A stretch of DNA of 64,000 bases from Fibrobacter sp. UBA4309 (GCF_002395745.1 NZ_DGUN01000027.1:19958-83957), one strand, 5' to 3'; positions 16,200 to 23,824 are shown, counted from the first letter of the stretch. The notes: generated by a model from the letters alone, not told the origin. Translations and numbers: made by a program.

Positions 16200-17402
16200 A
16201 TGGAATTCCTGGAATTTTTGAATGCGTCGGTGACTCCTTACCACACTGTCGAGGGGGTGAAATCCCTCTTGGCGCAGTCCAAGATTGAAAATTTGAAGGT
16301 TTGGGAACGCGGCGGGGCTCTCGTTGCGGTTCGCATGCCGAAAAATCCATGTACGGACCCCAAGTTCAGGATTTCGCTTGCCCATACCGATTTCCCGGCG
16401 CTCAAGATTTCGCCGAACCCGGATGGCCGATCGGCGGGCGTTCAGACGCTCCATCCCGAAATCTACGGCAGCCCGATATATACGAGCTGGCTCGATCGCG
16501 ACCTGGGATACGCCGGAATCCTGGCTTACGAGGTTAACGAAAAAATCGGGACTAAACTGTTCCGTTCGGACAAGTTTGTCCGGATTCCTCAACTGGCGGT
16601 CCACCTGAATCGCGGCGTGAACCAGGACGGTTTGAAGGTGAATCCGCAGACGGACCTGAACGCATTGTGGACCTCGAGCGAGGGCGCGAGGTTTGCAGAC
16701 TCCCTGCAGAAGGAATTGCCCGAAGGGGCGAAGTTGCTCGATTTTGACGTGCAGCTTTTCGATGCGCAGCCGGCGCAGCTGGGAGGCCTTGACTGCGAAT
16801 GGATTTATTCCGGGCGTCTCGACAACCTTTCGAGTTGCCATGCGGTCGCGACGGCGATGGTGAACGCTCCCGTGCCCGAGAACGACATCCTGGTCGCCGC
16901 CTTTTTCAACAACGAGGAGGTGGGCTCCGAGACCCGCGAAGGGGCCGCCGGGAACTTCCTCAGGAGCGTCCTGGAAGAAATCGCGCAGGAATGCGGCATA
17001 CCGTCTCTGGCTTCTAGCCTTTCGTCCAGCCTTGCGCTTTCTATCGACATGGCGCATGCCTGCCATCCGAACTTCGTGCAGAAACACGACCAGAATCACG
17101 CCCCTGTCTTGGGTGAAGGAATCGTATTGAAGACAAATTCACAAAAGCGCTACGCGAGCGACGTTCTTTCGAATGCCCGGTTCAAGATGCTCTGCAAGCA
17201 GGTGGATGTTCCGTACCAGACGTTCGTGACGCGAAACGACATGCCGTGCGGCTCTACCGTGGGCCCGACCGTCTCGGCGATGCTCGGGATTCCTACCGTC
17301 GACATTGGCGAACCCATCCTGAGCATGCACAGCATACGCGAAATGATGGCGATTAAGGACCACGAAAGCATGATCCGCCTCGTTTCCGCATTCTTTTGTT
17401 AA
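16200..17402 (+). CDS. M18-family (aspartyl) aminopeptidase
   Basis: AHTDFP, GRLDNL, FNNEEVGS, SIDMAH, LSMHSIRE. Confidence 0.92.
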   Translation: MEFLEFLNASVTPYHTVEGVKSLLAQSKIENLKVWERGGALVAVRMPKNPCTDPKFRISLAHTDFPALKISPNPDGRSAGVQTLHPEIYGSPIYTSWLDRDLGYAGILAYEVNEKIGTKLFRSDKFVRIPQLAVHLNRGVNQDGLKVNPQTDLNALWTSSEGARFADSLQKELPEGAKLLDFDVQLFDAQPAQLGGLDCEWIYSGRLDNLSSCHAVATAMVNAPVPENDILVAAFFNNEEVGSETREGAAGNFLRSVLEEIAQECGIPSLASSLSSSLALSIDMAHACHPNFVQKHDQNHAPVLGEGIVLKTNSQKRYASDVLSNARFKMLCKQVDVPYQTFVTRNDMPCGSTVGPTVSAMLGIPTVDIGEPILSMHSIREMMAIKDHESMIRLVSAFFC

Positions 17403-17414
17403 ATTTATCGAAGA

Positions 17415-17861
17415 ATGTTTGCTGGCATCGTAAAGAAACTGCGCAGCCGGTTTCCCCGCAAGTCGCTGATGGGGCAGTTCCTCCGTTACATGGTGACGGG
17501 GGGTGTTGCCTTCGTGGCCGATTTCGGGCTGTTCGCGCTGTGCCTTTACGGTTTCGGTTGGCACTACCTGCTGGCGAACCTCGTGGGCCTGGTAGCAGGC
17601 CTCGTCCTCAATTACCTGATGAGCATCCTGTGGGTGTTTACCGCCTGCAAGCGCATCCTCGAGAAACGGAAACTTGCCGAGTTCACGCTCTTTGCCCTGG
17701 TGGGCATCGCGGGCGTCGGCATAAACCAGGTGCTCATGTACCTGATGGTCGATGGCCTTGGTCTCAACGAGATGCTGTCGAAGATGGTCGCCGCGGTGCT
17801 CGTGCTGATGTGGAATTTTGGGGCGCGGAAGCTGATCCTTTTTAAGAAGAGAGAAAAATAA
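17415..17861 (+). CDS. GtrA-family flippase-like membrane protein
   Basis: [17 protein letters not shown], four TM helices, WNF C-terminal motif. Confidence 0.9.
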
Positions 17862-17862
17862 G

Positions 17863-19512
17863 ATGGCTGCAGAAAAAGAATTCAAGAAGGTTGCCGTAAT
17901 CGCGGGCGCAGGCCCTGCAGGATTGACGGCGGCGCTGGAACTGTTGCGCACTACCGACGTGAAGCCGGTTATTTACGAAGCCGAGGACGTTGTCGGCGGT
18001 ATTTCCCGCACCGCGCGCTACAAGGGCAACCGCATGGACATCGGCGGCCACCGCTTCTTTAGCAAGAGCGATACCGTGATGGACTGGTGGCAGGGAATTC
18101 TCCCGCTCCAGGGTGCCGCCAGCAAGGACGACATCGCCATTGGCCGCAGCGTTCCGCTGACGGAAGGCGGCCCCGACCCGGAGAAGACGGACTACGTGAT
18201 GCTCTGTCGCAGCCGCCTCTCGCGCATCCTCTTCTTGCGCAAGCTTTTTGATTATCCGGTGAGCCTGAATGGCGACACCATCCGCAATCTCGGTCTCTGG
18301 CGCATGTTCAAGATTGGCATGAGCTACCTCAAGGTGCAGCTGTTGCCCGCCCGCAAGGAGAAGAGCCTCGAAGATTTCATGATCAACCGCTTTGGCGTGG
18401 AACTCTACCGCACGTTCTTCCGCGACTACACCGAGAAGGTGTGGGGCGTGCCGTGCAGCAAGATTAGCCCCGACTGGGGTGGCCAGCGCATCAAGGGCCT
18501 TTCCATCACCAAGACGGTAATCCATGCGCTCAAGCAGATTTTTGCAGGCAAGAAGAAGGCCGAGGCCGGTGCCGCAAGCGGTGCGGACATCCGCCAGAAA
18601 GATACCGAGACGAGCCTCATCGGCCAGTTCCTGTACCCGAAATTCGGCCCCGGCCAGCTCTGGGAAACGGTCGCCGAGAAAGTGAAGGAAATGGGCGGCG
18701 AAATAAACATGTACACGAAGGTCGTGGGCGTGAACCGCGACGCGAGCGGCAAGCGCGTCGAGAGCGTCGTCGTCGAGAGCATGGACAATACGGGCGTCTT
18801 TATGCACGAAACTATTCCGTGCGATTACTTCCTCAGCACCATGCCGGTCAAGGAACTCGTTGCCGCGATGGACGGCGAGAAGAATCCCGTGCCCGCCGAA
18901 GTCAAGCGTATCGCCGATGGCCTCGTGTACCGCGACTTCATTACCGTGGGGCTCTTGCTCGACAAACTGCTCATCAAGAATCCGGCAAAGCCGGGAACGC
19001 CCGAAAGCAAGCTCAAGTTCGTTGCCGACAACTGGATTTACGTACAGGAATCCGACGTGAAGCTCGGCCGCATCCAGATATTCAACAACTGGAGCCCCTA
19101 CCTGGTAGCCGACCCCGAGAAGGTGTGGATAGGCCTCGAATACTTTGCGACCGAGGGCGACGAGATGTGGCGCATGCCCGACAAGGACTTTATCCAGTTC
19201 GCCATCGACGAACTCGACAAGATTGACGTGGCAAGGCCCGAAGACGTGCGCGACTCCGTGGTGTTCCACATCAAGAAGGCGTACCCCGCCTACTTCGGTA
19301 CCTACGGCGAGTTCGACAAGATCCGCGAATACGTGGACCCGGTGGAGAACCTCTTCCTCATGGGCCGTAACGGCATGCACAGGTACAACAACATGGACCA
19401 CAGCATGCTCGCCGCCATGGAAGTCGTGAAGTGCATCCGCGAGAATTCTACCGACAAGACTGCTCTCTGGAACGTGAACAGCGAAGAAGAATACCACGAA
19501 GGCAAAAAGTGA
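17863..19512 (+). CDS. FAD-dependent oxidoreductase (COG1232 / UDP-galactopyranose-mutase-like)
   Basis: [35 protein letters not shown]. Confidence 0.8.
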
Positions 19513-21248
19513 TGCGCAGCATTCTGAAACGGGAAGTGCCTTTGCTCGTCGGGATGCTCCTGACGGCAATCCTTTCTTACGTGATGACGCCCAAGATAGA
19601 CAATGTCCTGTTGACGCGACAGGGGATGGAATCAAGGGCGGACATGCCGCTCAGCGTTCCCATGGGGGAAGGCGAGAACTTCTCGGTGACGATGGACGTG
19701 TTCACGGGCGGCGCCGGGGATTTCTTCTTGGATATCCATCCCGACGATTGCGTTACGGATTTAAAAGTGAACGGGGTCGAACTCCCGTTCAGGAGGTATC
19801 CGGGTTTTTGTAGCTGGAATACCGGGTTCATTTTGGGCAAGAAGGAAATCCAGAAATATGTCGGTTCGGACCTTTCGAGGATGCGTATCGACATGTCCCT
19901 GCGCAACAATGGCGGCCTGGGTGGCATCACGGCAGTGGTGAAGGGAAGCGGCTTCTTGCTGAGTGCCGTTTCCGTGCTGTTTTTCCTGTTGCTCGGCGGC
20001 CTGATTTTCTCTGTCGGATCCCGTTTCAAAATTGACTATCGTTTGTTGCTGGTGTTCTTTGTCGGTCTCCTGTTGCGCGTGGGCTACACGCAGGCTACGT
20101 TCTACGACGAACGCGGGCACGATACGGGCGGCCATGTCCACTACATCCAGATTATAGCGAAAGACCACCATATCCCCGCATCGAACGAATGCTGGACTTG
20201 TTACCACCCGCCCGTGTACTACGTCGCCAGCGCCGGTATCTGGAATCTTTTCGACTGGTTCGGCTGTTCGCCCCAGAACGCGGTCAAGTGGTTCGATTTC
20301 TTCATTTCGCTGTTGGCGCTGGCCTTTGGCCTGGCATGTATCGGCAATGTCCTCTGGGGGCAGCCGCGCTACATTGCCGCGTTGCTGTGGAGCGTGTGGC
20401 CAAGCTTTATACTGGCTTCGCCGCGGCTCGGTAACGACATCCTGTTCTATGCGATGCACGCCGTGGCGCTGTGGGGCTGTCTCCGCTACATCAAGACGAG
20501 CGCGGGCAAGTATTTCTTGACGGCCGTTTTGTCGGCTGCCGTTGCCTACTGGACAAAGTCTACCGCCGTCGTGACGTTCGGCATAGTCGGCGTTACCGTG
20601 CTTGTCCATACGCTCCCGAGAGTGTTGCGTGGCCTTGGCCGCATGGAATGGGCTTCCGTGGCTGTGCTTGTCGTGGTGGGCGCGATTGTCGTGATTCGCG
20701 TTCTCGGCGGAGACGTTGTCGCCAATGCCGGCGGTAACGACAACACTGTCCTGATCCAGAACCATCCGGGCAATTTCCTCTTCTTCGATATCCGTGCGTT
20801 CCTCGTGAATCCGTATATCGACCCGTGGCACGATGAGCTGGGCCGCCAGTTCTTCTGGAATTACCTAGCCAAGACATCCCTGTTCGGCGAATTCAAGCTC
20901 CTGGAAACGCTTGCGGGGCGCTGGCTGGCCTCTATCGTCAGCGCATGCTTCCTTGTCTTGCTTGCCTTCGGCATCCGTGGCTTCTGGAAGTCCCGTTGGA
21001 CAAAGCTGAAGGTAATCCTTGCGGCACAGGCGCTGTTCTTCTTCTCTGCCATGATTGCGCTCCGCCTCAACTATCCGTTCTCCTGCAGCAACGATTTTCG
21101 CTATATCGTCCCCGTGCTGTTGAGCTGCCTGCCTTGGGTGGCCGAAGGTATTGCCGGTGACGGATCCACGAAGGGGCTCAAGGCGATCGGATTTTCGGTG
21201 ACGGCCGTTTTCGTGGTGTGTTCGTCTATTCTAATGTTGAGCCTCTAA
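19512..21248 (+). CDS. GT-C glycosyltransferase (GT39/ArnT-like) with an extracytoplasmic N-terminal beta domain
   Basis: HDTGGH..YI, YHPPVYY, GNDIL, many TMs. ATG overlaps the upstream TGA, so 19512 is preferred to 19431. Confidence 0.75.
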   Translation: MRSILKREVPLLVGMLLTAILSYVMTPKIDNVLLTRQGMESRADMPLSVPMGEGENFSVTMDVFTGGAGDFFLDIHPDDCVTDLKVNGVELPFRRYPGFCSWNTGFILGKKEIQKYVGSDLSRMRIDMSLRNNGGLGGITAVVKGSGFLLSAVSVLFFLLLGGLIFSVGSRFKIDYRLLLVFFVGLLLRVGYTQATFYDERGHDTGGHVHYIQIIAKDHHIPASNECWTCYHPPVYYVASAGIWNLFDWFGCSPQNAVKWFDFFISLLALAFGLACIGNVLWGQPRYIAALLWSVWPSFILASPRLGNDILFYAMHAVALWGCLRYIKTSAGKYFLTAVLSAAVAYWTKSTAVVTFGIVGVTVLVHTLPRVLRGLGRMEWASVAVLVVVGAIVVIRVLGGDVVANAGGNDNTVLIQNHPGNFLFFDIRAFLVNPYIDPWHDELGRQFFWNYLAKTSLFGEFKLLETLAGRWLASIVSACFLVLLAFGIRGFWKSRWTKLKVILAAQALFFFSAMIALRLNYPFSCSNDFRYIVPVLLSCLPWVAEGIAGDGSTKGLKAIGFSVTAVFVVCSSILMLSL

Positions 21249-21249
21249 A

Positions 21250-22992
21250 ATGTTGATATTCCGGTACGAAAAAAATTTGAAGCTGTTCCTTTTCTGGGCG
21301 TTCGCCTGCATCCTGGTCAATTTCTTTTGCACTTTCGGTGAATCTTACGATGGTGACCAGAGCTTTTGGGTGGGGTGGGTGCAGCAGCTGATAGATGGCG
21401 GCTTCGGCAACTTCAAGGGCAATTACCCGCCGCTGTACGTGTTCTGGCTTTGGGTTGTCGCACAAATCCATTCCATATTCGGCATTGCCGTCGGCAAGAC
21501 GTTCTTCTTGAAGTTCATCTGCCTTTGGCCGGTCTACTTTGCGCACCTGTTCCTTGTGGATTGGCTTTGCCGTATCGTCGGGAAGTTCGGGGCCCCGCGC
21601 TGGAAACAGCATTTGATGATTGGCTTTGTGGCGCTGAATCCGGCGATACTCTTGAACGGCCCTATATGGGGCCAGGTGGACTTGGTCCCGGTAGTCTTGG
21701 CGATGCTTTCGATTTACTGCATCTCTCGCCAGGGGCTCATCAAGTGGGCGTCCATGTTCTTTGTCCTGTCGGTGTTGACCAAGTTCCAGATGATTATGTT
21801 CTTGCCCGTGTTTGGCGGGCTGTTCCTCCGTCACTGGCGCGTTTCGTGGAAAGGGCTTCCCTTTGCCGCCCTGTCCGTCGTGATTGTCCTGCTTCCGTTC
21901 TTTATCGGCGGCAATCTTGTCGAGATGCTTGGCAGGGCGTATGTGCAGACTTCTAGCCAGTATCCCTATGCCACGTTCAATGCGGCGAACTTGTGGATGC
22001 TGCTTGCCGGGAACGTGGCTCCGGACAACGTCCCCATCTGGGGAATCAAGGAGGCCGGCCTGGGATTCCTGCTGAAACCGAGTGTCCTTGGCCGCGTACT
22101 GTTTGTCGCCGTCTCGATTTTTGTTCTGGTCAAGAGCCTGCTATGCAAGAATATCCGTACGGCATATGCCCTATGCACCTTGAACGCGGTCGCGTTTTTT
22201 GTCGTGTTGCCCGGCATGCATGAACGTTACCTGATGTATGCGATTCCGGCAGCGCTATGCTGGAGCATCTGGGATATGAAACGTGGCGGTGTCGCATGCG
22301 TTTTTGTTTCCCTGGTGGCGTCGCTGAACGTGAATATCATCAATACCTACAAGGGGTACGATGTCTGGATGATAACCTCGGCGCTGGGCGCCGTCGTGCT
22401 GGTTGCGATCCTGTTGGTTGTCGCGTTCCCCGGGTTGCCGAAAAAAACAGTCGGCGTTGTATCCAGGTTGTCCTTGCCATCGTTTGTCCCGTATGTCGTC
22501 TTGTCGGTAATCTTGCTGGTGGAATGCTCGGTACTCATGTTCCAGTTGCGCCCGGTAGTTGTCCCTGCGAACGAAAAGAACGTGCTGGTGACGGACTTGC
22601 CGGTATTGCGCGCGGATCAGAGTTACAAGAAACCCATGGTGAACGAATCCGTGGAAGGACGTTTCTTGACATCGGGTGATCGCCTGTACAAGAACGGTCT
22701 CGGCACGCATGCGCCTTCGCACATGACATATGAACTTCCCGAAAATGCCGATTCGCTGTTTATCGGTGCGGGTATTGACGACGAGGTCTATGACCACGGC
22801 AGTGCCGTCTTCATGATCCACCTGGACGGCGTAAATGTGTGGACAAGCCGAGTCCTGCAAGGCCGTGACAGGCCGACCTTTGTGGCGATTCCTGTAAACG
22901 GGGCGAGAAAACTGGAACTCATTACCGACCCGGATGGCGACAACAATAGCGACCATACGGACTGGCTGAATGCCTATGTAAGGGTGCGTTAG
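21250..22992 (+). CDS. GT-C (GT87/PIG-M-like) glycosyltransferase with a C-terminal NPCBM/NEW2 domain
   Basis: NYPPLY, LNPAILL..PIWGQVD, MHERY. C-terminal KNGLGTHA...GIDDE...DHTDW. Confidence 0.8.
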   Translation: MLIFRYEKNLKLFLFWAFACILVNFFCTFGESYDGDQSFWVGWVQQLIDGGFGNFKGNYPPLYVFWLWVVAQIHSIFGIAVGKTFFLKFICLWPVYFAHLFLVDWLCRIVGKFGAPRWKQHLMIGFVALNPAILLNGPIWGQVDLVPVVLAMLSIYCISRQGLIKWASMFFVLSVLTKFQMIMFLPVFGGLFLRHWRVSWKGLPFAALSVVIVLLPFFIGGNLVEMLGRAYVQTSSQYPYATFNAANLWMLLAGNVAPDNVPIWGIKEAGLGFLLKPSVLGRVLFVAVSIFVLVKSLLCKNIRTAYALCTLNAVAFFVVLPGMHERYLMYAIPAALCWSIWDMKRGGVACVFVSLVASLNVNIINTYKGYDVWMITSALGAVVLVAILLVVAFPGLPKKTVGVVSRLSLPSFVPYVVLSVILLVECSVLMFQLRPVVVPANEKNVLVTDLPVLRADQSYKKPMVNESVEGRFLTSGDRLYKNGLGTHAPSHMTYELPENADSLFIGAGIDDEVYDHGSAVFMIHLDGVNVWTSRVLQGRDRPTFVAIPVNGARKLELITDPDGDNNSDHTDWLNAYVRVR

Positions 22993-23086
22993 GGGCATTA
23001 GTTTTTCCGTTTCGTTTTTTGTATATTCTTGCCATGTAAGGATTGAAAGGAGTGCCCGAAATCCTGTTCAGAGGTTAGTGATTAAA

Positions 23087-23824
23087 ATGCGATTGTTTGT
23101 TTTACTTGTATGCTTGCTGTCGGTGGCGCTTTTTGCGCGGCCCATAAACGACGGCAACAAGCTGTTCAAGAACGGCGACTATGCCGGAGCCTTGGAAAAG
23201 TACATGAAGGCCCGCGAGACCGAACCCGCGAACCCGCTCCTGTTCTACAACATCGGTACGTGCCAGTACAGGCTTGGCAACTACGAAGAGGCCAAGAAGG
23301 AACTCGAGAGTGCCGTGCGCATGCCGGACAAGAAGATGGCTGCGAAGGCGGCGTACAACCTCGCGAACACGCATTTCCGCATGGGTGAGAAGGCCGCCGA
23401 GGGCAGCGAACGCATTGCCGCCTGGCGCGAATCCGTTGCTTACCTCAAGAAGGCGATTGACCTCGATAACAATTTCGAGAACGCGAAGAAGAACGTGGAA
23501 ATTGTCCAGCGCAAGCTGAAGGAAGAACTCGACAAGCAGAAAGAGAACAAGGACCAGAATCAGGACCAGAACAACGACCAGAAACAGCCGCCGCTTTCCG
23601 ACAAGGCGAAGGAAGTCCTGGCGCGCGCACTCCAGCTCTGCAAAGACGGCAAGTACGCCGAGGCGAAGGAAATGCTCGAGAACCTGATTGCCGAGGACGA
23701 GACTGCGGGCCAGCTGAGCGGCCACGTGCAGCGCATCGACGATGTCATCGAAATCAAGGCGGGCCGCAAGCCCAAGGCGAAGATTGACGCGAGCAACACC
23801 GACAACGACCTGGAGGTGATCTGA
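23087..23824 (+). CDS. BatC-like TPR protein
   Basis: Signal peptide, GNKLFKNGDYAGA, YNIGTCQYR, YNLANTHF, DAKKNVEIV-like TPR cap. Confidence 0.75.
   Translation: MRLFVLLVCLLSVALFARPINDGNKLFKNGDYAGALEKYMKARETEPANPLLFYNIGTCQYRLGNYEEAKKELESAVRMPDKKMAAKAAYNLANTHFRMGEKAAEGSERIAAWRESVAYLKKAIDLDNNFENAKKNVEIVQRKLKEELDKQKENKDQNQDQNNDQKQPPLSDKAKEVLARALQLCKDGKYAEAKEMLENLIAEDETAGQLSGHVQRIDDVIEIKAGRKPKAKIDASNTDNDLEVI

Follow-up and report, generated by a model that had tools for sequence, protein, structure and literature searches.

In a window of 64,000 nucleotides from Fibrobacter sp. UBA4309 (the whole stretch of DNA analysed; GCF_002395745.1, NZ_DGUN01000027.1:19958-83957), positions 17415-22992 carry four plus-strand open reading frames (ORFs). 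They encode a GtrA-family membrane protein, a flavoprotein resembling the long-form UDP-galactopyranose mutases (UGMs) and two putative glycosyltransferases (GTs) of the GT-C type, hereafter GT-C 1 and GT-C 2 (Table 1). This cluster is probably an accessory, Gtr-like cassette for extracytoplasmic furanosylation, organised around the UGM-like mutase. The original prediction, made from the sequence alone, described four genes packed at 1-nt gaps or overlapping, and the ORF coordinates bear this out: the first and last junctions are 1-nt gaps, and at the middle one the genes overlap by 4 nt (ATGA). The GtrA gene starts 12 nt past the end of an M18 aminopeptidase gene and stops 1 nt ahead of the flavoprotein start. 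Since its relatives measure 576-583 residues, GT-C 1 likely starts with the ATG at 19509, in overlap with the flavoprotein stop codon, and not with the GTG at 19431. No GT2 was found by Pfam within 17415-22992 or in the neighbouring genes scanned. The cluster thus lacks a GtrB-like gene, as had been predicted, but a GtrB-like GT2 exists elsewhere in the genome. A scan for promoters and terminators returned sites no more frequent than in shuffled sequence.

Table 1. Genes and domains of the cluster and its borders, with positions counted from the first nucleotide of the window.
Feature	Position	Strand	Length and basis
GtrA-family small membrane protein	17415..17861	+	148 aa; PF04138
Long-form UGM-like flavoprotein, predicted cytoplasmic	17863..19512	+	549 aa; NF005546
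GT-C-type transferase 1 (GT-C 1), candidate	19509..21248	+	579 aa; near-threshold PMT_2
GT-C-type transferase 2 (GT-C 2), membrane domain, predicted ALG6-like GT-C fold	21250..22581	+	AF2 model comparison
C-terminal NPCBM/CBM51 module of transferase 2	22582..22992	+	PF08305; whole gene 21250-22992, 580 aa
M18 aminopeptidase gene, conserved left island border	16200..17402	+	PF02127, E 7e-100
TPR-repeat (tetratricopeptide) protein gene, conserved right island border	23078..23824	+	TPR families

The flavoprotein matches the NCBIfam family NF005546 (PRK07208.1-2, 'hypothetical protein') over residues 8-549 with 866.9 bits, for a cut-off of 418. Pfam assigns it to NAD_binding_8/Amino_oxidase, and its close relatives carry the automatic names 'NAD(P)/FAD-dependent oxidoreductase' or 'protoporphyrinogen oxidase'. 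No study characterising the PRK07208 family was found in the literature searched, which leaves out most subscription journals. Among PDB sequences, the best match of the single protein is the Trypanosoma cruzi UGM (E 2e-18), and a profile of 41 family members matches the Aspergillus fumigatus UGM with E 8e-39, bacterial UGMs with 2e-16 and protoporphyrinogen oxidase (PPO) with 4e-10. The AlphaFold2 (AF2) model of the flavoprotein has a predicted local distance difference test score (pLDDT) of 91. With this model, UGMs fill the top 34 ranks of a Foldseek search (E 5e-30), and the fold matches listed comprise UGM, PPO, renalase, desaturase and related Rossmann-type flavoproteins. VIA alignment with the T. 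cruzi UGM (4DSH) gives a Z-score of 32.5 and a root-mean-square deviation (rmsd) of 3.1 Å over 447 residues, for Z-scores of 27.6 with bacterial UGMs and 27.0 with PPO. The fold therefore separates the UGM and PPO classes only modestly, and the assignment rests on residues.

We also compared the protein with models of the other candidate classes. Of the models for bacterial UGMs (Glf), it matches neither PF03275 (no match at E 0.01 or better) nor, at the required score, TIGR00031 (27.8 bits, cut-off 303.75). A DprE1-type protein is not indicated either: by Pfam the flavoprotein has no FAD_binding_4 (VAO-type) fold and is of the Rossmann type instead. The HemY models TIGR00562 (23.9 bits for a cut-off of 97.85, residues 10-183) and NF008841 (28.9 for 517, residues 11-74) score far below their thresholds, and the matches to PPO, phytoene desaturase and amine oxidase are all limited to the N-terminal dinucleotide-binding region. 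The likeness to eukaryote-type UGMs had originally been proposed from two motifs, DIGGHRFF and a second one of 14 residues, both of which are found in the translation. It is now borne out by the PDB sequence matches, the fold matches and the conservation of the active site throughout the family. Structural comparison with UGM and HemY ranks UGMs above PPOs, and does not identify the protein as a PPO.

Active-site positions were mapped by profile alignment to the A. fumigatus (Af) UGM, whose residue roles are taken from PMC3322874, and their conservation was counted in 41 diverse family members. The histidine loop G61-G62-H63 of the Af enzyme falls on G61-G62-H63 of the flavoprotein, within the sequence D59-I-G61-G62-H63, where D59, G61 and H63 are invariant (41/41) and G62 is a glycine in 31 of the 41. 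The essential arginines R182 and R327 correspond to R209 (39/41) and R403 (41/41), and the diphosphate-binding tyrosines Y162, Y317, Y419 and Y453 to Y189 (39/41), Y393 (41/41), Y474 (39/41) and Y508 (38/41). Y104, which stacks on uracil, aligns with Y131 (39/41). The ribose contact N163 is replaced by T190, and threonine also occupies this position in the canonical Glf encoded by the same genome, with which the flavoprotein shares the nucleotide motif YTEKxWG. In the conserved C-terminal motif, R447 and N457, the latter binding galactose hydroxyls in the Af enzyme, correspond to R502 and N510, each retained in 38-41 of the 41. Apart from G62, the mapped UGM positions are kept in 35-41 of the 41 members. 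This pattern supports a flavoprotein that would bind a nucleotide-diphospho-sugar and be built for non-redox ring contraction of the UGM type; the sugar need not be galactose.

The product of the GtrA gene matches PF04138 (GtrA_DPMS_TM) with E 1.2e-21 and 77.5 bits (cut-off 26.1). It has four to five hydrophobic segments, about four of them transmembrane (TM) helices, and is presumed from its sequence to be the subunit that flips a polyprenyl-phosphate sugar or handles its carrier. The same genome contains, in the region 76063-77520 of contig C50, a second GtrA-family gene (138 aa, PF04138 E 1.5e-21), which adjoins a divergent gene for an epimerase/dehydratase of the short-chain dehydrogenase/reductase (SDR) family. 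The 506-aa ORF upstream of this second GtrA gene, whose frame is uncertain, does not resemble GT-C 1 and matches no Pfam family.

For GT-C 1, the evidence is a near-threshold Pfam score for PF13231 (PMT_2), the annotation of its relatives and its atlas clusters (PMT_2/PMT/DUF2142), which together suggest a candidate GT-C related to the PMT_2/GT39 type. About half of the relatives have a precomputed PF13231 match, and some are named 'glycosyltransferase family 39' at NCBI. From its N-terminus, the protein consists of a TM helix, an extracytoplasmic domain (about 120 residues) and a PMT_2/GT39-like membrane domain with an invariant aspartate in its first loop (D205, in HDxxGH). Residues ~28-150 have no Pfam match, and sub-threshold atlas leads (0.79-0.82) point to galactose-binding-like jelly-roll domains.

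The membrane part of GT-C 2 has no Pfam match. Its AF2 model (pLDDT 87) aligns by VIA with yeast ALG6 at a Z-score of 28.3 (rmsd 3.2 Å, 375 residues), followed by GPI mannosyltransferase I (23.2), ALG3 (22.2), PimE (17.0) and ArnT (14.8). All its structural matches are GT-C enzymes, several of them solved with a polyprenyl- or dolichyl-phosphate ligand. Invariant residues comprise D36 in the first loop (29 relatives), D144 and the H324-E-R-Y motif, and JGI names the relatives 'Gpi18-like mannosyltransferase'. The C-terminal tail matches PF08305 (NPCBM) with E 1.6e-31 and 109.6 bits (cut-off 23.9) and superimposes on CBM51 structures with Z-scores of 23.5-24 (rmsd 1.2 Å, 136-138 residues). Among its nearest structures is the galactose-binding CBM51 of the Clostridium perfringens GH95 enzyme (TMt 0.88). 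The model comparisons thus confirm GT-C 2 as a GT-C by its predicted fold, with a C-terminal CBM51/NPCBM module. By analogy with such enzymes, both GT-Cs would use polyprenyl-phosphate-linked donors. Both had been expected to carry an extracytoplasmic domain resembling sugar-binding modules; this holds for GT-C 2 with its NPCBM and, by sub-threshold leads, weakly for GT-C 1.

We then considered the genomic context of the flavoprotein outside of Fibrobacter. A search of 1.84 billion representative proteins gave 8043 members of the family with a threshold of E <=0.001, or 1155 when it is set to E <=1e-30, and 80 loci were collected from many phyla. Jackhmmer searches over the neighbouring ORFs gave no match from GT-C 2 and only 8 from GT-C 1; neighbours were therefore classed by their number of TM segments and by a tally of Pfam families, the latter covering 108 same-strand neighbours at 47 loci (at least 44% identity). 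The commonest families in this tally are GtrA (13), PMT_2 (9), PMT (5), GT2 (5) and GT87 (2), and SDR epimerases account for two neighbours. Of 187 adjacent genes, 39 encode polytopic proteins, compared with 17 of 309 at a distance above 4 kb (p 3e-7); for GtrA-sized membrane proteins, the counts are 15 of 187 and 4 of 309 (p 3e-4). GtrB-shaped neighbours occur at 5/49 and 5/31 loci. In Butyrivibrio and Lachnospiraceae loci, the gene for a GtrB-shaped GT2 lies directly 3' of the flavoprotein gene.

The flavoprotein is also found fused to proteins of the same kinds. It is joined to GtrA in P0125, P0239 and others, to polytopic membrane domains in P0127, P0138 and P0243, to a GT4 in P0136 and to a methyltransferase in P0128. 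The 1409 residues of P0219 combine a flavoprotein, a GT2 (491-770) and a PMT_2 GT-C (983-1134), a single polypeptide that by its predicted domains would correspond to the entire pathway proposed here. The use of a flipped lipid-linked donor, an early conjecture about this cluster, is supported by the enrichment of GtrA, polytopic and GT-C neighbours together with the chains in which the flavoprotein is fused to GtrA, to a GT-C or to both a GT2 and a GT-C. A pathway leading from nucleotide sugar to lipid to GT-C is favoured because of the GT4 fusion, the GT2-GT-C fusion and the conserved nucleotide-binding residues.

Two further groups of relatives have other architectures. In a distant subfamily (L050, L054, L056, L058 and L060; 36-41% identity), the flavoprotein reaches ~600-630 residues with 2-3 C-terminal TM helices and is followed by an ORF of 105-113 aa with 2-3 TM helices. 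The TM parts of the L050, L054 and L060 proteins have no Pfam match; judged from their sequences, the TM parts of this subfamily might form a split or divergent GtrA-like unit. Many other relatives are soluble proteins of 1000-2168 residues with the flavoprotein at the N-terminus (P0131, P0149, P0175 and P0190; also P0242, P0246, P0238 and others). In the first four, no Pfam domain is matched by the rest of the chain, which runs from several hundred to over 1000 residues.

Within the phylum, co-occurrence was surveyed in a sample that includes 46 Fibrobacteraceae genomes, 30 of them from the same genus. The flavoprotein is present in 33 of the 46, and in 19 of the 30 congeneric genomes, so the cassette is accessory in Fibrobacteraceae. 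The canonical Glf of the Fibrobacter genome (contig C6, 2198-2818) scores 250.9 bits with PF03275. Ten of the 46 genomes encode both flavoprotein and Glf, 23 the flavoprotein only, five Glf only and eight neither. The two distributions are independent, so that the flavoprotein neither assists Glf nor stands in for it. Some Fibrobacter genomes (G008, G076 and G080) have two flavoprotein copies on different contigs, 85-93% and 79-91% identical to that of the window, which suggests, from the sequences, two cassettes per genome.

The stretch between the M18 and TPR genes (16200-23824) is a variable glycan-modification island in Fibrobacter. Both border genes flank an island in three other genomes, G005 (L089, contig C14), G068 (L090, contig C41) and G028 (L088, contig C6), where the TPR protein is 78-95% identical. 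G068 has the same four genes, G005 only those for GtrA, the flavoprotein and GT-C 1, and G028 an acyltransferase (Acyl_transf_3), a relative of GT-C 2 and another PMT_2 GT-C, without GtrA or flavoprotein. Identity across the island variants is 83-93% for the flavoprotein, 52-65% for GtrA, 36-56% for GT-C 1 and 44-60% for GT-C 2. GT-C 1 follows the flavoprotein in both related genomes inspected, with the same 36-56% identity. The dedicated partners of the flavoprotein are GtrA and the translationally coupled GT-C 1, and GT-C 2 is a module of this hotspot that moves separately. The two GT-Cs had at first been taken as parts of one system; the survey upholds GT-C 1 as a partner, but GT-C 2 is not strictly coupled to the flavoprotein.

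The GtrB-like GT2 of the genome is encoded on contig C79 (103742-104725). Along its full length it shares 41% identity with one of the flavoprotein-adjacent GT2s of the Butyrivibrio/Lachnospiraceae loci, and it is core, being found in 46/46 Fibrobacteraceae genomes; for this reason GT2 co-occurrence cannot discriminate between explanations. A third GT-C (867 aa, weak PMT_2) is encoded directly upstream of it (C79, 101095-104725 for the two genes). The C-terminal NPCBM of this third GT-C is 32% identical to that of GT-C 2, and by sequence the C79 GT-C and GT2 look like a core lipid-linked glycosylation pair.

The pathway that we propose would begin with the flavoprotein, which most likely turns a nucleotide sugar, probably a UDP-sugar, from the pyranose into the furanose form, N5 of the reduced flavin attacking C1. 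A polyprenyl-phosphate GT2 encoded outside of the cassette, for which the core GtrB-like protein of C79 is the candidate, would put the furanose on undecaprenyl phosphate. GtrA would then handle or flip the lipid-linked sugar, and the coupled, fast-diverging GT-C 1 would transfer it, on the outer side of the cytoplasmic membrane, to a glycan or a protein of the envelope. GT-C 2, which carries the CBM51, would be a second transferase and may use the same or a different lipid-linked donor. Galactose, arabinose or another sugar are candidates.

Several observations weigh against this proposal. The sole strong GtrB-like GT2 is core whether the flavoprotein is present or absent, and the cassette itself has no GT2. 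GT-C 2 has relatives in G028 and in G064 (60% identity in the latter), two genomes in which the flavoprotein was not found, and the converse is also seen. GT-C 1 stays below the PF13231 cut-off (25.2-25.3 bits for 26.1), and its family profile finds no match among PDB sequences. In fold score, PPOs come close behind UGMs (Z 27.0 vs 32.5). At the position of Af Q107, which forms hydrogen bonds with uracil, the family is variable (K 13, S 12, R 5 and Q 3 of 41), and Af N207, in the sugar-specific flap that senses the C4 hydroxyl, has no clear equivalent in the flavoprotein; nucleotide and sugar specificity are therefore not fixed by residues. In the literature searched, we found neither biochemical data on any member of the flavoprotein family nor documentation of a furanose in the Fibrobacter envelope.

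Part of this evidence would fit other roles for the flavoenzyme. It may act on the lipid carrier, either by isomerising a polyprenyl-phosphate pyranose or by resolving the flavin-sugar adduct with polyprenyl phosphate in place of UDP. In the adduct version it would take the role of GtrB, whose place it holds in the GtrA-X-GT-C gene order. Such an activity would suit the Fibrobacter cassette and the majority of loci, which are without GT2 (5/108 neighbours; GtrB-shaped at 5/49 and 5/31 loci), the repeated fusion of the flavoprotein to GtrA or polytopic membrane domains, and a genome whose one strong GtrB-like GT2 is core and uncoupled from the flavoprotein. Yet the conserved residues for ribose, uracil stacking and diphosphate point to a nucleotide-sugar substrate, the GT4 and GT2-GT-C fusions imply a nucleotide-sugar product that is passed to a transferase, and no flavin-dependent enzyme is known to transfer a glycosyl group to a lipid phosphate. 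We consider this explanation unlikely, and distinctly unlikely its particular form in which the flavoenzyme of GT2-less cassettes would be a 'mutase-transferase' that replaces GtrB and places the ring-contracted sugar onto GtrA-held undecaprenyl phosphate, yielding a lipid-linked hexofuranose donor.

The Pfam assignment (Amino_oxidase/NAD_binding_8) and fold scores to redox enzymes that are not far below those to UGMs raise another possibility, namely a redox enzyme of the amine-oxidase/phytoene-desaturase superfamily and not a mutase. This enzyme would oxidise a sugar hydroxyl while the sugar is bound to a nucleotide or a lipid, and so either initiate a DprE1/DprE2-like epimerisation, of which it would perform the first half, or serve a keto-sugar modification. 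SDR epimerase genes do adjoin some loci (2/108 neighbours), and one lies beside the second GtrA gene of the Fibrobacter genome, but such partners are rare. Moreover, the family-invariant residues are those that UGMs use for their non-redox mechanism and for UDP binding, and the matches to PPO, phytoene desaturase and amine oxidase do not extend beyond the N-terminal region; a redox role thus appears rather unlikely. That the flavoprotein is a PPO (HemY) with glycosylation genes as coincidental neighbours is highly improbable, even though close relatives bear the PPO label and both share the superfamily fold. The HemY models score far under their cut-offs and match the N-terminus only, UGMs outrank PPOs by sequence (E 8e-39 vs 4e-10), and synteny with GtrA, GT2 and GT-C genes, as well as the fusions, recurs across phyla.

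Furanose sugars are absent from mammals. To our knowledge, the routes that bring furanoses to bacterial surfaces are few: UDP-galactofuranose with Leloir transferases, and lipid-linked pentofuranoses derived from phosphoribosyl pyrophosphate (PRPP). We know of no lipid-linked hexofuranose donor described so far. The flavoprotein family comprises thousands of proteins from most bacterial phyla and is unnamed in databases. If it does feed furanoses to GtrA/GT-C machinery, it would represent a third, widespread route of extracytoplasmic furanosylation, via a lipid-linked hexofuranose donor. Given its location in a variable island, the cassette may underlie strain-level surface variation in Fibrobacter, with possible bearing on phage resistance, fibre adhesion and host recognition.

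The flavoprotein can be compared with UGMs of both types. With the eukaryote-type enzymes (T. cruzi 4DSG/4DSH; A. fumigatus 3UKA, 3UTE and 3UKH) it shares the fold (Z 30-32.5, ~22% identity, ~447 residues), the GGH loop, the catalytic arginines, the four diphosphate tyrosines, the uracil-stacking tyrosine and the GR-G-x-x-Y...N-x-DHS motif. Unlike them, it is bacterial, has an insertion of ~30 residues (~80-112), does not conserve Gln107 and Asn207, and has threonine as its ribose contact, as in bacterial UGMs. It resembles bacterial Glf (PF03275, TIGR00031) in its superfamily and its YTEKxWG motif, and the family profile matches bacterial UGM structures with E 2e-16. In contrast to Glf, it is ~150 residues longer, fails the Glf models and is independently distributed in Fibrobacteraceae. 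Known UGMs feed Leloir galactofuranosyltransferases, whereas the genes of this family are embedded in, or fused to, GtrA/GT-C machinery.

In its overall organisation, the cassette is similar to the GtrA/GtrB/GtrC systems of Shigella and Salmonella phages, to CsbB/GtcA/YfhO and to ArnC/ArnEF/ArnT. All combine a GtrA-family protein with a variable GT-C in a compact, strain-variable accessory cassette, whose transferase diverges much faster than the upstream enzyme. The cassette differs from these in that a UGM-like flavoprotein occupies the place of GtrB, the GT2 being encoded elsewhere or, in other lineages, fused or adjacent. Our literature search on UGM with GtrA/GT-C, undecaprenyl phosphate or furanose yielded only the pentofuranose work of Kelly et al. 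and reviews. In the Citrobacter youngae O1/O2 system, PPPRS (ORF15), a MATE flippase and the GT136 protein ORF12 are involved (Kelly et al. PNAS 2024, PMC11127046). In the pentofuranose systems and in mycobacterial arabinan synthesis, the furanose is assembled on the lipid from PRPP, with DprE1/DprE2-type remodelling and no UGM-like mutase (PMC11127046, PMC11194591). The C. youngae system has a MATE flippase where the Fibrobacter cassette has GtrA. DprE1 is a flavoprotein of a different, VAO-type fold, and the analogy with it drawn in the original prediction holds in function only, both fold and chemistry being different. As in C. youngae O1/O2 and in the mycobacterial Emb pathway with its decaprenyl-phosphate arabinose (DPA) donor, a lipid-linked furanose donor would serve a GT-C outside the membrane, and the C. 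youngae and Emb-type GT-Cs also carry an additional extracytoplasmic domain, either beta-rich or carbohydrate-binding.

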